Position numbers and translations under genes: made by a program
DNA from: Actinomycetes bacterium
GTDB lineage: Bacteria > Actinomycetota > Acidimicrobiia > Acidimicrobiales > Bog-793
Assembly: GCA_021797795.1 (NCBI GenBank)
Contig: JAJZZB010000001.1
Span: 10,775 to 74,774 of the forward strand
Direction of reading: 5' to 3'
Length of the DNA stretch: 64,000 bases
Shown: positions 51,630-62,663 of the stretch, in pieces
How positions within the stretch are numbered: the stretch's first letter is position 1
Layout of the letters: each line of letters opens with the position of its first letter
The notes under the pieces: model-generated
What the model was told of the DNA's origin: nothing
Databases searched by the model: none
Seen by the model: only the letters and a program-made list of their open reading frames with translations

Positions 51630-51745
51630 GAGCGCCCGGGTGTGCGGCCCCGAACGCCTCCGCCGGGCACCCGGTGGACCCGGCACCCGCCGGCGCTCGG
51701 GGTGCAGGATCTCGCCCGGCTGTCCCGACGGCAAAGGAGCCCAGG

Positions 51746-52768
51746 ATGACGTCGCCACGAACCGACTGGTCCGGCCCGGCCATCTTCGTCGAAGACGTCC
51801 ACAAGTCCTTCGGCGAGGTGCGCGCCCTCGCCGGGATCGACCTCGTGGTGGAGCGGGGCGAGGTGCTCGGGCTGCTCGGCCCGAACGGGGCCGGCAAGAC
51901 CACGGCCGTCAAGATCCTCACCACGCTGCTCGCACCCGACACCGGCCGGGCGCTCGTCGAAGGCCGCGACGTGGTGCGCTCGCCCGAGGCGGTGCGCGAG
52001 ATCATCGGCCTCGCAGGGCAGTCCGCCGCCATCCAGGAGGAGCTCACCGGCCGGGAGAACCTGGAGATCATGGGTCGGCTGTACCACCTCGACGCCGCGA
52101 CCCGCGCTCGGCGGGCGGTCGAGCTGCTCGAGCGCTTCGACCTCATCGAGGCGGCCGACCGGCCCACCAAGGGCTACTCGGGCGGGATGCAGCGCCGCCT
52201 CGACCTCGCGCTCAGCCTCGTGGCGACGCCCCAGGTGCTCTTCCTCGACGAGCCGACGACCGGCCTCGACCCCCGCAGCCGCATCGGGATGTGGGACGTC
52301 ATCCGCGAGCTCGTCTCGGCCGGGACGACGCTCCTGCTCACCACCCAGTACCTCGAGGAGGCCGACGAGCTCGCCGACGAGATCGTCGTCATCGACCGCG
52401 GCAAGGTGATCGCGGCCGGCACGGCCCATGAGCTGAAGAACCGGGTGGGCGGGGACATCCTCCAATTCAGCGTGGTCGAGCGGGGCCGCCTGGGAGAGGC
52501 TGCCGAGGCGGTCGGCGTCCTCTCGGACGCCGAGGCGGTCCTCGACGCCGAGTCGGGCAGCCTCGCCCTGGCGGTCGGGGGAGACGGCTCACATGCCCTC
52601 GTCGAGACCGTCCGGCGGCTCGACGCGCTCGGGATCCACACCGAAGGGCTCGGCATCCGGCGCCCCTCGCTCGACGACGTCTTCCTCTCCCTCACCGGGC
52701 ACGCCGCCGAGGACGAGGAATCGGCCGCGACCTCGCCCCGTCGACAGCGCGCCAATCGCAGGCACTGA
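51746..52768 (+). CDS. ABC transporter ATP-binding protein (DrrA/daunorubicin-resistance type)
   Basis: ATG 51746 after AAAGGAG. GPNGAGKTT, YSGGMQRRLDLA, LFLDEPTTGLD. Confidence 0.85.
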   Translation: MTSPRTDWSGPAIFVEDVHKSFGEVRALAGIDLVVERGEVLGLLGPNGAGKTTAVKILTTLLAPDTGRALVEGRDVVRSPEAVREIIGLAGQSAAIQEELTGRENLEIMGRLYHLDAATRARRAVELLERFDLIEAADRPTKGYSGGMQRRLDLALSLVATPQVLFLDEPTTGLDPRSRIGMWDVIRELVSAGTTLLLTTQYLEEADELADEIVVIDRGKVIAAGTAHELKNRVGGDILQFSVVERGRLGEAAEAVGVLSDAEAVLDAESGSLALAVGGDGSHALVETVRRLDALGIHTEGLGIRRPSLDDVFLSLTGHAAEDEESAATSPRRQRANRRH

Positions 52769-52779
52769 TCGGAGACCCC

Positions 52780-53607
52780 ATGACCACGACCACGCTGCCG
52801 CCGCTCGCCGCCCTCGACATCCCGCCGCCGCCGATGAGCCGGCGCGTCCGCCTCGGGCTGTCCGACGTCGTGACGCTGACGCGCCGCGAGCTCAGGATCT
52901 GGTTCCGCAACCCGGCCTACCTCTTCTTCACGATCATCCAGCCGATGATGTTCGTGCTGTTGTTCCGCTACGTCTTCGGCGGTGCCATCCCGGTCAACGT
53001 CCCCGGCGGCTACGTCGACTTCCTCATGCCGGGGATCATCGCCCAGTCGGCGGCCTTCGCCTCCTTCGGCACGGCCATCGCTCTCGCCCGCGGCCTGCAA
53101 AAGGGGGTGATCGACCGGTTCCGGGCCATGCCGATGGCCCGCTCGGCGGTGCTCCTCGGGCGCCTCGTCGCCGACACCCTGCGCCTCGTCGTCACGCTGC
53201 TCGTCATCCTCGCGGTGGGCTACGCCGTCGGCTTCCGGTTCCACAACGGCATCGGCCCGGCCGTGCTCATGGTGCTCCTCGGCATCGCCTTCGGGGTGAC
53301 CATCTGCACGGTGAGCGCCTTCGTCGGCCTGGCGATCAAAGACGAGGAGTCGGTCGGCTCCTTCGGCCTCGTCTGGCTGTTCCCGCTCACCTTCGTGAGC
53401 GCAGCGTTCGTGCCGGTCTCCTCCATGCCCGGATGGCTCCAGGCGTTCGCAAAGAACCAGCCGGTGACGATCGTCATCGACGAGATGCGCAGCCTCGCAC
53501 TCGGTGGACCCCTCGCTCTGCACGCCTGGCAGAGCGCGCTCTGGCTCGCCGCCATCGTGGCGGTCTTCGTGCCACTCGCCGTCCGGGCCTACCGGCGGGC
53601 CACCTGA
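52780..53607 (+). CDS. ABC-2 type transporter permease
   Basis: Six predicted hydrophobic segments. The position and size are typical of a DrrB-like partner. Confidence 0.8.
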   Translation: MTTTTLPPLAALDIPPPPMSRRVRLGLSDVVTLTRRELRIWFRNPAYLFFTIIQPMMFVLLFRYVFGGAIPVNVPGGYVDFLMPGIIAQSAAFASFGTAIALARGLQKGVIDRFRAMPMARSAVLLGRLVADTLRLVVTLLVILAVGYAVGFRFHNGIGPAVLMVLLGIAFGVTICTVSAFVGLAIKDEESVGSFGLVWLFPLTFVSAAFVPVSSMPGWLQAFAKNQPVTIVIDEMRSLALGGPLALHAWQSALWLAAIVAVFVPLAVRAYRRAT

Positions 53608-53689: not shown

Positions 53690-54691
53690 TCATAGCAGGT
53701 GGTAGCCGGGAACGCGCTCGTGTGCCGAGTCGAGGTAGACCTTGGCCTCGGGCGGCTGGCGGAAGCGGCCGTGGCTCCAGCGGATCTCGACGTGGCCCTG
53801 GACGACCTGCTCGCCGTCGCCGCGGCGCCGCTCGCAGAGCGCGCTCCAGGCGATCCTCGGCTGGCCGCCCTGTTCGGCCTCGACCTCGAGGCGCCGGAGC
53901 CGGAACGACCGCCGCCAGTCCCACGGCGTGTCGATCCTCAGGCGGACCGGTCCCGCTGCACCCGAACCGAGGACGAAGTAGGGCACTGAGCCGATCCGGA
54001 GCAGCCGCCACAGCACGATCTCGGCGCTCGAGTGCGCGATGTTCCGCCGCCAGGCGTCGGCCGTGCGCTCGGCGACGGCACGGCACAGGCGGCCGTAGGC
54101 CCGCTCGGCACCGCTCGGCCAGCCGGCCGTGAGTCTCGCCGAGAGCTGGCGGCGCTGTGCCGGGTTGAGGCTCATGGCGAACATCGGCAGACCCGCCCCG
54201 CCGCTCGAGTCGAGGCAGGCCTCGTACAGCTCCTGGTACTCCTCCGGCGCGATCCGGGCGTACCAGTCCCTGGCGTCGCCCACCGGGGCGTTCGACAGCA
54301 GCCCCTCGACGAGGCGCGCCGGACTCGGGTTGTGCAGGATGCGCGACTGGTACTTGCAGCTGACGAGATAGACGTGGTCGATCCGGAGATCGGCCGGCAC
54401 GACCTCGTCACCGGGCGGCCGCCGTCCGCCGGTCCACTCCACCCGCCGGGGTCTACGACCCGCCAGGGCGTCGTCGGCCAGGAGGAAGGCCCGTCCGTTC
54501 GCCCAGCCCTGGCGGAACTCCTCGGAGTGTGCGCCGTCGAGGAAGAGCCGCACCAGGCGGGTCCACTCCTCGGGGGCGAGGTCGGAGAAGGCCGGTGGCG
54601 GGACGAGAGCGCCCATCAGCTGCTCGAGTGGCGCTCCGGTGGCGCCGAGCGCCGTCGAGAGCTCGGTGACGAAGGTCCGGTCGGAGGGCAC
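53690..54691 (-). CDS. hypothetical protein; candidate restriction endonuclease partner of the upstream methyltransferase
   Basis: 333-aa ORF whose GTG start lies 3 nt after the MTase stop. Codon third positions are GC-rich. A possible PD...SxK-type motif is PADLRIDHVYLVSCKY. No domain was recognised with certainty. Confidence 0.6.
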   Translation of the reverse strand: MPSDRTFVTELSTALGATGAPLEQLMGALVPPPAFSDLAPEEWTRLVRLFLDGAHSEEFRQGWANGRAFLLADDALAGRRPRRVEWTGGRRPPGDEVVPADLRIDHVYLVSCKYQSRILHNPSPARLVEGLLSNAPVGDARDWYARIAPEEYQELYEACLDSSGGAGLPMFAMSLNPAQRRQLSARLTAGWPSGAERAYGRLCRAVAERTADAWRRNIAHSSAEIVLWRLLRIGSVPYFVLGSGAAGPVRLRIDTPWDWRRSFRLRRLEVEAEQGGQPRIAWSALCERRRGDGEQVVQGHVEIRWSHGRFRQPPEAKVYLDSAHERVPGYHLL

Positions 54692-54694
54692 GCC

Positions 54695-56152
54695 TCAGCG
54701 AGGGTCGCGGCCGGCCTCGGCGTACCGGCAGAGTCGCTCCCGGTCGGCGTCGTTCAGGAGCTCCACGACGTCGAAGACGGCGCCCGACGGTCCCCTGAGG
54801 GCGTCGAGGGCGAGGCGCCCGGCGCTGTTGCGGGAGGGGACGTCGGTCGTGAGCAGGACGAGGGCGGCGTCGGGATCGCTCGCGTGGAGCACCGCCGCCC
54901 GGCCGAGGGCACGCCAGAGCAGCTCGGCGCGCCGCAGTCCCCCCCTCGTGGCGGTGAAGGCGCCGGAGAGGTCGAAGGCCCACCTGCCGCCGGTGCGGTC
55001 GCGGGCGGTGAAGTGCAGCTCGAGACCGGCTCCGGCCACCTTCACGTCCCGGCGCACGTCGAGGAAGCCGACCTCGCCGAGAAGGGTCTCGGCGAGCTCC
55101 CTTGCGAGGCGGCCTTCGATCAGGCCGCTGGCGAAGCCTTCCCGCCCGTCGTGGTCCGGGCGCCCGGCGGGCAGCCGGACCGCCGGCCGGGCGCCCCCCT
55201 CCCGGTCGAGCCGCCGTCGCTCGTCCGCCACCCGCTGGCGGGCCTGGTCGCAGTAGGTCGCGTCGGTGTCGAAGCCGACGAAGTGGCGGCCGCGGCCGAG
55301 GGCAGCGACGGCCGTCGTACCGGAGCCCATGAAGGGGTCGAGGACGATGTCGCCCTCGTAGGTGTAGAGGTCGATCAACCGGGCCGGCAGGCCGACCGGG
55401 AACGGCGCCGGGTGGTTCACCCGCCTGGCGCTCTCGGGCGGGAGCTCCCACAGGTCCGTGGTCGCCTCGAGGAACTCGTCCCGGCCGATGGTCGCCGTCG
55501 ACGGCAGGCCGCGCCGGCGGCGCTCCTCCGGCCTGAGCGCCCGGTCGAAGCGGCCCTTGCTCGCGATGACGATGCGCTCGGTCACGTCCCGCAGCACCGG
55601 GTTGCTCGGATGCTGGAAGGTCCCCCAGGCGCACGAGCCGCCGGCCGCCCTGCCCTTCCACCAGACCACCTCCCCCCGCAGCAGCAGGCCGAGCTCCTGC
55701 AGGATCGAGGTCACGTCGCCGGCGAGCGACCGGTACGGGCGCCGGCCGAGGTTGGCGACGTTGACGGCGATGCGGCCCCCCGGCTCGAGCACCCGCTTGC
55801 ACTCCGAGAGGACGTCGCGCAGCAGGGCGAGGTACTCGAAGTAGCTCCCCGGCACCCCGTTGTGCCCGAGGCTCTCCTCGTACTCCTTGCCGGCGAAGTA
55901 CGGCGGAGAGGTGACGACGAGGGCAACCGAGCTCGCCTCGAGGGCGCTCATCGAGCGGGCGTCCCCGTGGTAGATGACGTCGAAGGCGCTCGGGAGGGCA
56001 ACGTCGTCGTCGGGGCTCAGCTCGGGCGAGACGAAGCGGTCGTAGAAGGCCGAGGCGTCGTGGCTCTCGCGCCGGGACGACCCGAAGCGGGCCGTCGAGG
56101 TCGCCCGGCGGGCGCGGGGCCGGGACGGCTGCGAGGCGGTGTCGAGGCTCAC
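54695..56152 (-). CDS. site-specific DNA methyltransferase, beta-class (motif IV SPPY before motif I), with extra C-terminal domain
   Basis: VVTSPPYFAGKEYE (motif IV) precedes VLDPFMGSGTTAVAA (motif I). NHPAPFP is also present. About 150 aa beyond the MTase core are unassigned. Confidence 0.85.
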   Translation of the reverse strand: MSLDTASQPSRPRARRATSTARFGSSRRESHDASAFYDRFVSPELSPDDDVALPSAFDVIYHGDARSMSALEASSVALVVTSPPYFAGKEYEESLGHNGVPGSYFEYLALLRDVLSECKRVLEPGGRIAVNVANLGRRPYRSLAGDVTSILQELGLLLRGEVVWWKGRAAGGSCAWGTFQHPSNPVLRDVTERIVIASKGRFDRALRPEERRRRGLPSTATIGRDEFLEATTDLWELPPESARRVNHPAPFPVGLPARLIDLYTYEGDIVLDPFMGSGTTAVAALGRGRHFVGFDTDATYCDQARQRVADERRRLDREGGARPAVRLPAGRPDHDGREGFASGLIEGRLARELAETLLGEVGFLDVRRDVKVAGAGLELHFTARDRTGGRWAFDLSGAFTATRGGLRRAELLWRALGRAAVLHASDPDAALVLLTTDVPSRNSAGRLALDALRGPSGAVFDVVELLNDADRERLCRYAEAGRDPR

Positions 56153-56295
56153 GACGGGGAGTCCCCGGGCGGGAGCTTGGCGAGGAACTCCTCGACGGCA
56201 CGGGTGACGAGGAAGTTCACCGACACCTCGCGGGCCCGGGCAGCCGCGTGAAGCGCCTCACGCAGCGACACCGGAAGGCGGATGGCCGTCGCCAT
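56149..56295 (-). CDS. small ribbon-helix-helix (Arc/MetJ/CopG-like) protein
   Basis: MATAIRLPVSLREALHAAARAREVSVNFLVTRAVEEFL fits a beta-strand/helix/helix pattern. The stop overlaps the MTase GTG start (GTGA). An alternative ATG lies at 56328. Confidence 0.55.
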   Translation of the reverse strand: MATAIRLPVSLREALHAAARAREVSVNFLVTRAVEEFLAKLPPGDSPS

Positions 56296-56345
56296 CCTCG
56301 GCTCGTCTGAACACCTCGGTCTGCCCATGACGAGACCATAACGAC

Positions 56346-56396
56346 GGGCTGTCGCGAGGTGGTGGATTATGCGCGCGTTAACGCCCGCGACAGCCC
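56346..56396. promoter_or_regulatory. 11-bp inverted repeat GGGCTGTCGCG...CGCGACAGCCC enclosing the palindrome GCGTTAACGC (56375-56384)
   Basis: Read directly from the sequence. It lies in the divergent region between the RHH-MTase operon and the peptide ABC operon. Confidence 0.5.
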
Positions 56397-56563
56397 GGCT
56401 CGATGGGCGGGCAGGCAAGCACCACTGTCGAAATTCGCAGGTCAGACCGGCGACCGCCGAAAACATGGCATGGGCATAGGCAAACGGCGATCTGCCGACT
56501 ATCTTACGACCAGGCGTAGTCCAGATGACGACTGCGTGACAACCGACCCGAAAGGGGGCCCGT

Positions 56564-58468
56564 ATGCGGGCATGGATCAAGGGCGCACGCGCCGGGGCAG
56601 CGGTCGCCGCAGGCGCGCTGGTTCTCGCCGCGTGTGGGAGCGGGACCGGCAGCGGCGGCGGAGGGACCGGCGGCGGCAACACGAGCGCCTTCAACGCGCC
56701 GGGCGGCTACGGGAAGCTCCCGACGCAGTCCGGCACGCCGAAGAAGGGCGGCATCGTCACGATCGCCGAGTCGCCCGGTGCAGGCCCGAACTACATCTTC
56801 CCGATCACGCCGGCCGCCAACGAGTCGGTGTACACGATCGACCAGTTCCAGTACTACATGTGGCGCCCGCTCTGGTGGGCTCCGCAGGGCGCGACCCCGA
56901 CCATCAACTTCCCCCAGTCCATAGCGAGCGCGCCGGCCTTCTCGAACAACAACAAGACCATCACAATCCACATGAAGTCAGGCTGGAAGTGGTCCGACGG
57001 GGCGCCGGTGACCTCGAAGGACGTCGCCTTCGACCTGTGGCTCACCAAGGCCGCCGTCAAGATCAGCCCGGCGAACGACGGGAACTACACCCCCGGCCTC
57101 TACCCGGACTTCATCACGTCGATCCAGACACCGAACTCCACGACGGTCGTGCTCAAGGTCAACAAGACCTACAACCAGAACTTCATGTTCTACAACCAGC
57201 TGGGTCAGATCGTCCCGCTGCCGGCGCAGGCATGGTCGAAGACGAGCGCGAGCGGCGCGACCATCCCCTTCGCCAACCTGGCGAACGCGGAGAAGATCTA
57301 CAAGTTCCTGAACGCCCAGTCGGGCAAGCTGGCGACGTACGCCACGAACCCGCTCTGGCAGGTGGTGGACGGCCCGTTCAAGCTGAAGACCTTCGACCCG
57401 TCGACCGACGCCAACACCCTCGTGGCGAACCCCGCCTACGGCGGGCCGGTGAAGCCCAAGATCGCCGGGATCGACAACGTCGCCTTCACCTCGACGAGCG
57501 CCGAGTTCAACCAGCTCCTGAGCGGCAACCTCGACGTCGGCTTCGTCGACTTCAGCAACCTGCCACAGGTCAACACGCTGAAGGCGAAGGGCTACAACGT
57601 CTGGGGCTACCCGGACTTCGGGTTCTCCTACATCGGCTACAACTTCAAGGACCCGACGGGCGACTTCAACAACATCATCTCGCAGCTCTACATCCGTCAG
57701 GCGCTGGCGCACCTGCAGGACGAGCCGGCGGTGATCCAGTCCAAGGGTGTGTTCGACGGAGCTGCCGGCGCGGCGTACGGCCCGGTCCCGGCCGTCCCGA
57801 AGAGCCCGTTCGCCCCGGCGAACGCTCTGACGAACCCGTACCCGTTCAGCATCTCGGCAGCCAGCAACCTGCTGACGAGCCACGGCTGGAAGGTCGTCCC
57901 TGGCGGCACCACGACCTGCCAGAAGCCCGGGACGGCTTCGAACGAGTGCGGCGCCGGCATCCCGAAGGGGACGGCGCTCACCTGGAACCTCATCTACGGC
58001 AACTCGCCGGCCGTCATCGGTGCGCAGGATGAGATCTGGGCATCCAACGCCAAGAAGGTCGGGATCACGATCAACCTGAGCTCGAAGACCTTCAACTACA
58101 TCATCTCGAACCTGTCGGACGTCTCGAACCCGTCGAACGACAAGATCTGGGCGATGCAGGACTTCGGCGGATTCACCAACAGCCTGTACCCGACGACGAA
58201 CGAGCTGTTCAACACGAAGGGCTCGTTCAACTTCGGCGGCTTCTCGAACCCGCAGATCGACAAGGCGATCCAGAACTCGATCAGCTCGCTCGACAACACC
58301 GCGGTCCAAAAGGAGATCGGGCTCGTCACCGCACAGCAGCCGGGTCTGTTCCAGCCGAATGCCGACCTCGTGTTCGCCTTCAAGAACACCCTCTCCGGCC
58401 CACCGGCGAGCTTCGCCGACGCCTCCCAGTACCAGTTCTCACCGGAGTACTGGTACTTCAAGAAGTAA
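56564..58468 (+). CDS. ABC transporter substrate-binding lipoprotein, peptide/nickel (family 5) type
   Basis: Signal peptide plus lipobox (ALVLAACGSG) and a Gly-rich linker. The size and sequence are SBP_bac_5-like. An RBS AAAGGGGG lies upstream. Confidence 0.85.
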   Translation: MRAWIKGARAGAAVAAGALVLAACGSGTGSGGGGTGGGNTSAFNAPGGYGKLPTQSGTPKKGGIVTIAESPGAGPNYIFPITPAANESVYTIDQFQYYMWRPLWWAPQGATPTINFPQSIASAPAFSNNNKTITIHMKSGWKWSDGAPVTSKDVAFDLWLTKAAVKISPANDGNYTPGLYPDFITSIQTPNSTTVVLKVNKTYNQNFMFYNQLGQIVPLPAQAWSKTSASGATIPFANLANAEKIYKFLNAQSGKLATYATNPLWQVVDGPFKLKTFDPSTDANTLVANPAYGGPVKPKIAGIDNVAFTSTSAEFNQLLSGNLDVGFVDFSNLPQVNTLKAKGYNVWGYPDFGFSYIGYNFKDPTGDFNNIISQLYIRQALAHLQDEPAVIQSKGVFDGAAGAAYGPVPAVPKSPFAPANALTNPYPFSISAASNLLTSHGWKVVPGGTTTCQKPGTASNECGAGIPKGTALTWNLIYGNSPAVIGAQDEIWASNAKKVGITINLSSKTFNYIISNLSDVSNPSNDKIWAMQDFGGFTNSLYPTTNELFNTKGSFNFGGFSNPQIDKAIQNSISSLDNTAVQKEIGLVTAQQPGLFQPNADLVFAFKNTLSGPPASFADASQYQFSPEYWYFKK

Positions 58469-58568
58469 CGAAGTAATCCGCACGACTCGGGAAGGATGCG
58501 AAACCGGGCCCACCGGCCCGGCCTAGCATCCTTCCCGAGCGGGTTCTCAGGGGAGGTGCGCCAGGAGC

Positions 58569-59516
58569 GTGACTGCTTATCTCATCCGTCGCCTGGTCAC
58601 GTCGCTGATCGTCATCCTCGGCATCGCGCTCGTGACCTTTCTCATGACCCACATCATCGCCCCCTCTCCCGGGCGGGCGATCCTCGGTGACCGTGCCAGC
58701 CGGGCCGCCGTCAACGCCTTCGACAACGCCCACGGCTACGACCGCCCCGTCTGGGTCCAGTTCGGCAGCTACCTGTGGCAGCTCGTCCACGGGAACCTCG
58801 GCTACTCATACAAGCTCAACCAGACGGTCGACTCGCTCATCGCCGAGAACGCCCCCCACAGCATGTGGCTGAGCGGCATCTCGGTCTTTCTGAGCATCGT
58901 GATCGCCATCCCGCTCGGGATCTTCCAGGCGGTGAAGCGCAACTCGGTCGCCGACCAGGCCATCACGGCCGCCGCCTTCACCGCCTACTCGATGCCCCAG
59001 AACTTCCTCGGCATCCTCCTCATCGGCTTCCTCGCCATCCAGTGGCACCTCTTCCCGGCCGAGGCAAGCCAGAGCGAGCGGATCATCCCGTACATCTTCG
59101 CCTTCCATTCGAACTTCCTGCCGATCGCGACGCTCACCATCACGGCGGTCGCCGGCTACTCCCGCTACATGCGCTCGGCCGGCCTCGACGCCCTTGCCCA
59201 GGACTACATCCGCCTCGCGCGAGCGAAAGGCCTCACCGAGCCGACGGTCCTCCGGCGTCACCTGCTCCGCAACGCCATCCTGCCCATGGTCACCCTGATC
59301 GGGCTGTCGATCCCCCTGCTGCTCGCCGGCAACCTCGTCGTCGAGTACCTGTACAACTCCCACGGCCTCGGCCTTCTGTTCATCAACGAACTCGGCAACG
59401 AGGACTTCCCGACCGTCATCGCCCTGACGCTGCTCGGAGGCATCGCGACCGTCGTCGGCAACTTCGTCGCCGACGTCGCCCTGACCGTGGCGGACCCGCG
59501 GATCCGGATCAACTGA
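58569..59516 (+). CDS. ABC transporter permease (DppB/OppB-like)
   Basis: N-terminus YLIRRLVTSLIVILGIALVTF and the EAA-loop region YIRLARAKGL. Confidence 0.85.
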   Translation: MTAYLIRRLVTSLIVILGIALVTFLMTHIIAPSPGRAILGDRASRAAVNAFDNAHGYDRPVWVQFGSYLWQLVHGNLGYSYKLNQTVDSLIAENAPHSMWLSGISVFLSIVIAIPLGIFQAVKRNSVADQAITAAAFTAYSMPQNFLGILLIGFLAIQWHLFPAEASQSERIIPYIFAFHSNFLPIATLTITAVAGYSRYMRSAGLDALAQDYIRLARAKGLTEPTVLRRHLLRNAILPMVTLIGLSIPLLLAGNLVVEYLYNSHGLGLLFINELGNEDFPTVIALTLLGGIATVVGNFVADVALTVADPRIRIN

Positions 59517-59526
59517 GGAGGCCGCG

Positions 59527-60456
59527 ATGACCGTCAGCATCGGTGAGATCTACGAGGAGGTCCAGCCCTCCGACGTCGCCCCGGAGGGAGGTCAGATACA
59601 CGGGCCGAGGGCCGGCTGGAAGCTCGCGCTCTCCTCGTTCGTCGAGAACCGGCTCGCCGTCGCCGGCGCGGGGATCGTGGTGTTCTTCATCCTCTTCTCC
59701 TTCGTCGGGCCGCTCATCTACCACACCAACCAGAACTCGACGAACCCGATCAACGCCTTCCTCCCCCCGAGCGGTGCCCATCTGCTCGGCACGGACAGCA
59801 ACGGCTTCGACGAGCTCGGCCGCATGATGAAGGGTGGACAGGCAGCCCTCGAGATCGGCTTTTTCGCCTCGCTCATCGCGACGGTCATCGGCACCCTCGT
59901 CGGTGCCGTGGCAGGCCTGCTCGGGGGCGTCGTCGACGCCTTCCTGATGCGCATCGTCGACGTCATGCTGTCGATCCCGCTGCTGTTCGTCATCCTCATC
60001 GTCGGCGACCGCTACAACGGCGCCACGGTCTTCAGCCTCTCGATCATCATCGGCATCTTCTCCTGGCTCGTCTCGGCCCGCCTCGTGAGAGGGGAGGTCC
60101 TCTCGCTCCGGGTCCGGGACTTCGTGTTCGCCTCCCGCACGATGGGGGCCAGCCGCCGCCACCTCATCTACAAGCACCTCATCCCGAACGCGCTCGGCGT
60201 CGTGATCGTCAACATCACCTTCCAGGTCGCCGACACGATCAACCTCCTCGCCATCCTCGGCTTCCTCGGCTACGGCCTCAACTACCCCCAGGTGAGCTGG
60301 GGGGACATGCTCTCGAACGCCCTCAACTACCTCTCTGACGGGTACTGGTGGGTGGTCTACCCGGTCGGGGTGTGCCTCGTCCTCGTCGTGATGGCCTTCA
60401 ACTTCATCGGCGACGCGCTGCGCGACACTGTCGACGTCCGCCTGCGGCGGCGCTGA
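59527..60456 (+). CDS. ABC transporter permease (DppC/OppC-like)
   Basis: HLLGTDSNGFDELGRMMKG and the EAA-loop region FVFASRTMGAS. Confidence 0.85.
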   Translation: MTVSIGEIYEEVQPSDVAPEGGQIHGPRAGWKLALSSFVENRLAVAGAGIVVFFILFSFVGPLIYHTNQNSTNPINAFLPPSGAHLLGTDSNGFDELGRMMKGGQAALEIGFFASLIATVIGTLVGAVAGLLGGVVDAFLMRIVDVMLSIPLLFVILIVGDRYNGATVFSLSIIIGIFSWLVSARLVRGEVLSLRVRDFVFASRTMGASRRHLIYKHLIPNALGVVIVNITFQVADTINLLAILGFLGYGLNYPQVSWGDMLSNALNYLSDGYWWVVYPVGVCLVLVVMAFNFIGDALRDTVDVRLRRR

Positions 60457-60479
60457 GCCCGGAAGGATCCGAAGCGGGA

Positions 60480-62663
<2,184 letters not shown>

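Follow-up and report, generated by a model that had tools for sequence, protein, structure and literature searches.

A probable chromosomal Type II restriction-modification operon in Acidimicrobiia with a putative endonuclease from an unannotated protein family

The three-gene module described here, found in a 64,000-nucleotide stretch of an Acidimicrobiales genome (hereafter the window), is probably a chromosomal Type II restriction-modification (R-M) operon composed of a regulator, a DNA methyltransferase (MTase) and an endonuclease. The system is of an ordinary kind, whereas its conservation across Acidimicrobiia is unusual. An earlier note had proposed an R-M-like module, and this proposal is supported mainly by the genomic context and, in addition, by recurrent weak matches to a REase_II profile. 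As claimed there, all three genes lie on the minus strand and are tightly packed, with a GTGA overlap (56152-56149) between the stop codon of the ribbon-helix-helix (RHH)-like gene and the GTG start of the MTase gene, and a gap of 3 nt (GGC, 54692-54694) between the MTase stop codon and the start of a gene encoding a 333-aa protein. Homologues begin at equivalent positions (MGRPR..., M(S/T)LD... and MPSDRTF...), in agreement with the three starts, and the packing is not due to chance, because the MTase gene adjoins the 333-aa gene in the M-to-R order in 139 of 171 related loci. The module does lie between two transporter operons, an ABC-2 exporter and an Opp/Dpp-type importer (Table 1).

Table 1. 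Features of the module and its flanks in the window.
Feature	Position	Strand	Remark
RHH-like ORF	ATG 56328 to TGA 56149	minus	59 aa
MTase ORF	GTG 56152 to TGA 54695	minus	485 aa
333-aa ORF	GTG 54691 to TGA 53690	minus	putative endonuclease gene
MTase catalytic domain, aa 1-318	55199..56152	minus	PF01555, PADLOC MTase_II, PDB matches
MTase C-terminal extension, aa ~340-485 + stop codon	54695..55135	minus	conserved, ~150 aa, function unassigned
Candidate catalytic motif 1, P99-A-D101-L-R-I-D105-H-V-Y-L-V-S111-C-K113	54353..54397	minus	predicted beta-hairpin
Candidate catalytic motif 2, E302-I-R304-W-S-H307-G...P-E315-A-K317	53741..53788	minus	C-terminal beta-hairpin, REase_II profile region
Candidate operator, imperfect palindrome GCGGGCGTTAACGCGCGC	56371..56388	minus	conservation only
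-10-like hexamer TATGGT	56335..56340	minus	TANNNT form; T, A and final T invariant across 11 loci
ABC-2 exporter	51674-53607		flank
Opp/Dpp-type importer	56564-60456		flank

The middle gene encodes an MTase whose catalytic and AdoMet-binding motifs are intact. Motif IV (TSPPYF, aa 81-86) precedes motif I (DPFMGSGTT, aa 272-280), and this order, the S-P-P-[YF] rather than D-P-P-Y form of motif IV and a match to Pfam PF01555 N6_N4_Mtase (E 8e-37) bear out the previous assignment to the beta class. The protein also matched the PADLOC MTase_II model (E 2.6e-80) and, in the PDB, 2zie (E 6e-29) and the N4C MTase 8s9m (E 4e-18), with the N4C enzymes 8s9m/8s9n and M.PvuII among its PDB matches. The SPPY motif, together with the pairing of relatives of the 333-aa protein with C5-cytosine MTases, suggests that the product is N4-methylcytosine. 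Some homologues carry the JGI label 'adenine-specific'. Beyond the catalytic domain, the C-terminal extension is present in 118 related M-to-R loci; sequence and profile searches of this domain against Pfam, PHROG, NCBIfam and the PDB returned no match, and hhalign found it unrelated to the 333-aa family. The MTases paired with distant members of that family, which are N6_N4 enzymes of 314-329 aa at loci L087, L089 and L092, do not have it.

The family of the 333-aa protein has over 3,000 members, every one of them labelled "hypothetical", and no match to it was found in Pfam, NCBIfam or PHROGs, nor by sequence or profile comparison with the PDB. The co-occurrence analysis advised in the earlier note proved favorable, as a DNA MTase gene adjoins the family gene in 145 of 154 informative loci (139 M-to-R, 3 R-to-M, 1 convergent, 1 divergent and 1 C5-adjacent). 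This linkage holds regardless of gene order and of MTase class, the partners belonging to two chemically different classes, namely, N6_N4 MTases in varied orders and, at two loci, C5-cytosine MTases, once together with Vsr. For example, the order is reversed, with an overlap, at locus L090, and the contig of member P0142 carries a C5 MTase and Vsr beside McrB-like/HNH genes. On a viral contig (L088), two C5 MTases stand beside a decayed 333-aa copy with in-frame TAG/TGA stops; a protein search with this fragment matched only itself, and HaeIII and HhaI, the PDB relatives of these two MTases, matched generically only, no specificity being assigned from them. Such varied partners imply a dependence on methylation and not on one MTase protein, the pattern expected of a restriction enzyme. 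Furthermore, the two proteins co-diverge, with identities of 88/92, 66/79 and 50/65 % (333-aa protein/MTase) in three comparisons, the 333-aa protein changing faster; R usually diverges faster than M. An apparent MTase-nuclease fusion at locus L084 was rejected as a frameshift artefact of ORF calling.

Nine loci carry an intact solitary copy of the 333-aa gene among housekeeping genes, at a distance of at least 2.5 kb from any DNA MTase, and these copies retain all key residues where checked. This observation speaks against the R-M reading, as solitary copies would be unexpected for a toxic enzyme unless an MTase is encoded elsewhere in the genome. The R-M reading would give a probable function to more than 3,000 "hypothetical" proteins missed by Pfam, NCBIfam and NCBI annotation. 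Because the family is unannotated, methylome surveys would wrongly count the adjoining MTases as "orphans".

The MTase/333-aa pair occurs in 595 or more species genomes, almost all from Acidimicrobiia and including that of the cultured Acidiferrimicrobium sp. IK (locus L020), with identities of 59-92 % for the MTase and 48-88 % for its partner, and with local synteny with housekeeping genes within clades. A tblastn search with the 333-aa protein gave no match in plasmid and phage collections, nor did a plasmid search with the distant member P0142. The pair appears to have been inherited vertically across the class; such class-wide, vertical-looking conservation is atypical of mobile R-M systems and, with the absence from plasmid and phage collections, counts against the R-M reading. 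Each of these properties (the breadth, the high conservation of both proteins, the synteny and the absence of plasmid and phage matches) would suit a domesticated epigenetic system, in which a Dam/CcrM-like, class-wide MTase is accompanied by a methylation-reading partner such as a MutH-like, strand-discriminating nickase or a factor acting in repair or replication. The intact solitary copies among housekeeping genes also fit, as do passages of a metaepigenome study that describe CGCG and BAAAA methylation in all Acidimicrobiia metagenome-assembled genomes (MAGs) analysed and its absence in class Actinobacteria (PMC8919816). Such a system is nevertheless unlikely. Outside Acidimicrobiia, family members are found with unrelated C5 MTases and Vsr near defence genes, and in several gene orders, which fits portable R-M modules, and the decayed copy beside retained MTases on the viral contig illustrates a classic fate of restriction genes. 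Moreover, the MTase scored far under the cut-off of the CcrM equivalog (NCBIfam NF050803, 62.9 versus 830), and its classification as a CcrM-type cell-cycle MTase was rejected.

With the module taken as an R-M operon, the published methylation data offer a lead on its specificity. The same passages describe the CGCG methylation found in every Acidimicrobiia MAG analysed as m4C and name no Acidimicrobiia enzyme for it, and neither the article nor its supplement gives BAAAA MTase sequences for comparison (PMC8919816). In the window, the observed/expected (O/E) ratio of CGCG was 0.61, compared with 0.76-0.87 elsewhere, values that, without control genomes, are a lead and not evidence. By the k-mer O/E ratios, the depletion of CGCG was second only to that of CTAG, which is itself generically depleted, while BAAAA was not depleted. 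As a lead only, the MTase is a candidate writer of the Acidimicrobiia m4C CGCG mark. A bolder version, which we hold to be possible but doubtful, is that of an ancient, vertically inherited R-M system or methyl-directed nuclease that became fixed in much of Acidimicrobiia, with the MTase writing m4C CGCG and the nuclease having a fold without a solved relative, shared only with uncharacterised proteins of cyanophages and marine phages. For Acidimicrobiia, which are environmentally abundant and difficult to cultivate, the module supplies a candidate pair of enzymes behind a methylation mark seen across the class. An active endonuclease with conserved specificity would hinder transformation of these bacteria, an obstacle that pre-methylation could bypass.

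Two candidates for a PD-(D/E)XK signature on a beta-hairpin were found in the 333-aa protein, both at least 94 % conserved and both on predicted hairpins. Motif 1 is the string that the earlier note had singled out, PADLRIDHVYLVSCK, which was located at 54397-54353. Its P99-x-D101...S111-C-K113 residues are nearly invariant (P99 in 50/51, D101 in 49/51, S111 and K113 each in 48/51 members of alignment A2), and its strands span residues 102-104 and 108-114 of the structural model. Motif 2 is at least as well conserved in the same alignment (E302 in 49/51, E315 in 50/51, R304 and K317 each in 51/51). It is on motif 2 (E302...E315-A-K317), and not on motif 1, that the sole profile match to a known REase family lies. 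Weak matches to the PADLOC REase_II model PDLC03456, a REBASE-derived profile of 387 positions, were obtained from 38 of 51 diverse family members, the strongest being that of P0166 (E 2.6e-6), whose residues 221-329 are collinear with profile positions 272-375, whereas the window's own protein reached only E 0.01. The likeness thus covers the C-terminal ~110 residues, including E-x-R-W-S-H-G...P-E-x-K, but detectable similarity is restricted to this C-terminal third. These features point to a putative Type II restriction endonuclease from an unannotated family, for which we infer D101/S111/K113 and/or E302/E315/K317 as the catalytic residues. The lack of a Pfam or NCBIfam match and the weakness of the individual REase_II matches weigh against the R-M reading.

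A first AlphaFold model, built from 31 close homologues, reached a pLDDT of 78 with its worst values at the conserved motif, and was superseded by a model built from 51 diverse sequences (pLDDT 95.2). The structure comparison suggested in the earlier note did not reveal any nuclease kinship, as Foldseek searches of this confident model against PDB chains gave no significant match (best E 0.17). The structural matches were six uncharacterised phage proteins only, from cyanophages and marine phages; an HMM search covering the initial 50 kb of the cyanophage genome did not pick up the phage protein H8ZNG7. Being confidently predicted and without a solved relative, the modelled fold makes a reasonable target for structure determination.

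The proposed likeness to the SxK enzymes of the Cfr10I/NgoMIV group was not upheld. Cfr10I, NgoMIV and Bse634I have solved structures, yet no such PDB chain appeared in the Foldseek results, and the recognition motif R-(D/E)-R, located after SxK in this group, was not found. The 333-aa protein does share with these enzymes a P-x-D...S-C-K on a beta-hairpin and a mostly acidic residue (D/E129, in 41/51 members) ~16 residues downstream. However, its D-to-K spacing is 12 residues, compared with ~47-56 in that group, it has the second conserved E...E-x-K motif, and its SCK is followed by Y-x-S-x-I-L-x-N with no conserved R-D-R.

The absence of a PDB fold match and of a recognised nuclease domain in Pfam/NCBIfam would also agree with a methylation-only system, in which the 333-aa protein assists the MTase without catalytic activity of its own, for instance as a subunit for DNA binding, specificity or regulation. 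Partial Foldseek matches of the C-terminal sheet to ligand-binding folds (lipocalin, NTF2 and Bet v 1), none significant, lean the same way. We consider this improbable, since MTase partners drawn from the unrelated N6_N4 and C5 families argue against a protein-specific subunit role, and the invariant acidic and lysine motifs on hairpins and the recurrent REase_II matches are at odds with a non-catalytic protein. In addition, P0153, the single member found without E302 and E315, is also the one without a nearby MTase.

Turning to the first gene of the putative R-M operon, its described RHH character was corroborated by Pfam matches of the 59-aa protein below threshold (HicB 0.0046, Arc 0.038, RHH_1 0.053, and also CopG) and by a PHROG match to an Arc-like repressor (E 6.5e-4), with the RelB antitoxin also among its weak similarities. 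In 16 of 79 loci a conserved orthologue directly adjoins the start of the MTase gene and, because these loci are confined to one subclade, the RHH-like protein is regarded as an accessory part of the system and a candidate transcriptional controller of the operon. The imperfect palindrome GCGGGCGTTAACGCGCGC, which precedes the start codon of the RHH gene by ~43-60 nt, contains a GCGCGC hexamer (56376-56371) that is invariant in 11 of 11 aligned RHH-bearing loci, and may act as the RHH operator. A strict sigma-70 scan for a promoter upstream of the RHH gene gave no match; the TATGGT hexamer has the TANNNT form of the actinobacterial -10 element. As the ATG at 56328 starts only 6 nt beyond this hexamer, the RHH-first transcript is suggested to be leaderless. 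The upstream protein is RHH-like and not HTH, unlike in C-protein-controlled R-M systems, which are defined by an Xre-type HTH controller and a C-box; given the conserved upstream palindromic element, the control logic may be analogous. A toxin-antitoxin-like addiction cassette with the RHH-like protein as antitoxin is very improbable, for despite weak similarity to the HicB, CopG and RelB antitoxins and the tight coupling of the genes, this protein is absent from ~80 % of the loci that keep the M-R pair, no known toxin domain was found, and the mechanism is not truly distinct, since addictive behaviour is already a property of R-M systems.

Taken as an R-M operon, the module would be transcribed from a probably leaderless promoter upstream of 56328, and the RHH-like protein, made first, would bind the palindrome with the GCGCGC hexamer, immediately upstream of the -35 region, and set operon expression, in functional analogy to the controller (C) proteins of R-M systems. 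The MTase, translated by GTGA coupling, would methylate a short cytosine-containing host site, probably at N4, and the 333-aa protein, translated last across the 3-nt gap, would be the cognate endonuclease that cuts DNA without the mark.

Classical Type II (IIP-like) R-M systems with a beta-class N4-cytosine MTase include those of the PvuII, BamHI and Cfr9I/SmaI type. The present module resembles them in its separate, tightly linked and co-oriented MTase and endonuclease genes, its small upstream regulator and its S-P-P-[YF] motif IV ahead of FxGxG. In contrast, its endonuclease candidate comes from an unannotated family without a solved relative, its regulator is RHH-like and not an Xre-type HTH C protein, its MTase has an extra ~150-aa C-terminal domain, and its distribution looks vertical across a class instead of patchy. 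The nearest solved MTase is TTHA0409 of Thermus thermophilus (PDB 2zie), which, although only 297 aa long and without the C-terminal extension, aligns with aa 60-311 and shares the SPPY and DPF-G-GTT motifs.

All three minus-strand ORFs of the module are present in the window sequence exactly as the earlier note had stated, including the GTGA overlap between the RHH-like stop and the MTase start and the gap of three bases between the MTase stop and the 333-aa ORF. Their start sites are considered sound, since homologues begin at the same residues. Taken together, these genes probably constitute a Type II restriction-modification (R-M) operon with an unannotated nuclease family. The module is real and, so read, of an ordinary kind. 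Three of its features are uncommon: it is conserved class-wide, its MTase has an additional domain, and its putative regulator is RHH-like, with a conserved element resembling an operator. An ABC-2 exporter lies on one side of it and an Opp/Dpp-type peptide importer on the other, and the GC content of the module (0.72-0.77) is in line with the window average (~0.72), without GC anomaly. The importer operon itself has a GC content of 0.59-0.67, clearly below the rest of the window, and may have been acquired horizontally.

Positions of the module genes and neighbouring features in the window
Feature	Position	Strand	Remark
59-aa RHH-like ORF	ATG 56328 to TGA 56149	minus	
485-aa MTase ORF	GTG 56152 to TGA 54695	minus	
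MTase C-terminal domain	54698-55135		residues ~340-485
333-aa ORF	GTG 54691 to TGA 53690	minus	
GCGCGC hexamer	56376-56371	minus	invariant in 11 aligned loci, often within a longer palindrome
TANNNT hexamer (TATGGT)	56340-56335	minus	common to 11 aligned loci
Inverted repeat, 21 nt	56336-56406		81 % complementary, 29-nt spacer
Opp/Dpp-type importer operon	56700-61000		

The middle gene encodes a beta-class DNA MTase, as had been proposed, judging by its motif order (TSPPYF ahead of DPFMGSGTT) and the match of residues 76-305 to Pfam N6_N4_Mtase (E 8e-37). Residues 13-316 also match a PADLOC Type II MTase model (E 2.6e-80), and the closest solved chains are TTHA0409 (2zie, E 6e-29) and the N4-cytosine enzymes 8s9m/8s9n. 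Assignment as a CcrM equivalog was rejected, the score being far under the cut-off. The C-terminal part forms a separate conserved domain with the signature GF.D(V/I)...G(L/V)(E/G)V.F.A.D..G..W.FD(V/L)SGAF...R.GL.R.D.LWRALG.A.VLH...VLLTTD.P...S.G..AL, which found no match in Pfam, PHROG, or PDB and proved unrelated to the 333-aa protein on comparison. This domain is joined to the catalytic domain in 118 related loci in which the MTase gene precedes the 333-aa gene. Most Acidimicrobiia copies have it, and the 314-329-aa MTases paired with distant members of the 333-aa family do not. An 803-aa MTase-nuclease fusion ORF in one locus (L084:4582-6993) is only apparent and reflects a frameshift inside the C-terminal domain; the MTase frame itself closes with a TAG that overlaps the GTG of the next gene.

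The co-occurrence of the 333-aa gene with MTase genes was borne out in a comparison of 171 non-duplicate loci, as a DNA MTase gene adjoins it in 145 of the 154 classifiable for this neighbour. Distant members (33-42 % identity) lie downstream of short N6_N4 MTases in loci L087, L089, and L092. Another copy lies upstream of an N6_N4 MTase gene and overlaps it (L090), and others are convergent or divergent to one (L086 and L097). On the contig of member P0142 (JGI 3300059473), the family gene has a C5-cytosine MTase and Vsr as its neighbours, with McrB-like/HNH genes next to them. On a low-GC viral contig (L088:1-420, IMGVR_UViG_3300000553_003694), a C-terminal remnant (...EVRWSHGKF..NPESKLY) has decayed, interrupted by TAG and TGA stops in frame. 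A C5 MTase gene follows it directly, and a second one, in convergent orientation, is close by. Dependence on an MTase of whatever chemistry and gene order, with decay of the partner while MTases persist, is the behaviour of a restriction endonuclease. The P0142 contig is a small defence-gene cluster (C5 MTase, Vsr, an MrcB_N/HNH protein, and a 594-aa protein whose sole Pfam match is a faint AAA_22). Separately, 35 loci of one subclade (including L104 at 2190-2560, L103, L108, L110, L115, L164, L023, and L057) carry an additional ORF between the MTase and 333-aa genes, conserved and about 105-125 aa long (..AYAVV..PP.VFLAEDIE.L.RVLA.E.VA.T...R.ALLEERWGDAV..W....IDVY...DLP.DLIGAQLQFT.LF), which has no Pfam match and is absent from the window.

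The 333-aa protein itself has no sequence match in Pfam, NCBIfam, PHROG, or PDB. Its family comprises more than 3,192 matches in a collection clustered at 90 %, which fall into 498 clusters at 50 % identity. It occurs in at least 595 species genomes; these are MAGs of Acidimicrobiia in nearly every case, together with Acidiferrimicrobium sp. IK. All members are named "hypothetical protein" at source. A confident AlphaFold model built from 51 diverse sequences (pLDDT 95.2, pTM 0.90) starts with a helical region at the N-terminus, followed by a small region of hairpins (strands 84-86, 102-104, 108-114, and 118-120), a long helical insert, and a C-terminal sheet of seven strands. Foldseek returned no solved structure with E < 0.1; in BFVD, the whole fold is common to six uncharacterised phage proteins (A0A6J7XKW6, A0A7D7JQW9, A0A6J5LDP8, A0A8D9C8Y9, A0A1J0F9H5, and H8ZNG7; E 6e-9 to 1e-4, probability 1.0). 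The last belongs to Synechococcus phage metaG-MbCM1, and an HMM search for its gene in the first 50 kb of the cyanophage genome gave no signal.

Two motifs, P99-x-D101...S111-C-K113 and E302-x-R304...E315-x-K317, resemble nuclease signatures, are nearly invariant across the family as a whole, and each lie on a predicted beta-hairpin. The single member without E302 and E315 (P0153) also has no MTase nearby. The SCK string noticed earlier is real and conserved, and its position in the modelled hairpin suits a PD-(D/E)XK site. However, the features tested do not bear out the suggested kinship with the Cfr10I/NgoMIV group, since the model has no fold match to these solved enzymes and the protein lacks the R-(D/E)-R motif that follows their S-x-K. 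In addition, a single PADLOC model, PDLC03456, which carries the label "Type II restriction enzyme", is hit by 38 of the 51 diverse members; in the best match (E 2.6e-6), residues 221-329 align with profile positions 272-375 of 387. We therefore regard the 333-aa protein as a probable restriction enzyme on the basis of its MTase linkage, varied partners, profile similarity, and conserved motifs.

The 333-aa protein may, less probably, have a domesticated, methyl-directed role. In nine loci (L011, L033, L054, L070, L112, L127, L130, L139, and L150), the gene is intact and has housekeeping genes around it (such as CarD/DUF429, LytR_C/SpoU, and FAD oxidase/DUF3048), without a DNA MTase in at least the nearest 2.5 kb, and key residues are all kept in the four copies checked (the first four listed). 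Such a role would also suit a pair conserved much better than R-M systems usually are. At roughly 95/92/88, 83/79/66, and 75/65/50 % identity for neighbour, MTase, and partner, divergence of the pair tracks that of neighbouring housekeeping genes and points to long vertical inheritance; no relatives were found in plasmid or phage collections. The solitary copies could nevertheless be reconciled with the R-M reading, as lineage-fixed methylation would make separation of the two genes harmless.

The upstream gene is RHH-like, as previously described, with sub-threshold yet concordant matches to HicB, Arc, RHH_1, and CopG and a PHROG Arc-like repressor match (E 6.5e-4). Of 79 loci, only 16 have an orthologue, which in each case abuts the MTase start. 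In an alignment of upstream DNA from 11 RHH-bearing loci, the start codon lies 6-7 nt past the TANNNT hexamer, the spacing that a leaderless transcript would have in actinobacteria. The GCGCGC-containing palindrome, given its conservation, would be the RHH operator. In the window, it is bracketed by the inverted repeat.

Several observations hint at a recognition site with cytosine, of which CGCG is one possibility: the MTase has SPPY, some family members are paired with C5-cytosine MTases instead, the control region contains the hexamer GCGCGC, CGCG is depleted, and CGCG methylation has been reported in Acidimicrobiia MAGs. In passages of the metaepigenome study PMC8919816, CGCG and BAAAA methylation is reported for all Acidimicrobiia MAGs analysed and not for class Actinobacteria; these passages attribute CGCG to no Acidimicrobiia enzyme, and from the account of the MAGs we take the CGCG modification to be m4C. 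Alternatively, the window MTase could be one of the enzymes, called "orphan" there, to which BAAAA (m6A) is assigned; BAAAA shows no depletion here. Among 4-mer palindromes, only CTAG is more depleted than CGCG in each set of loci; the observed/expected ratios of CGCG, computed from these loci alone, are 0.61 in the window and 0.76-0.87 elsewhere.
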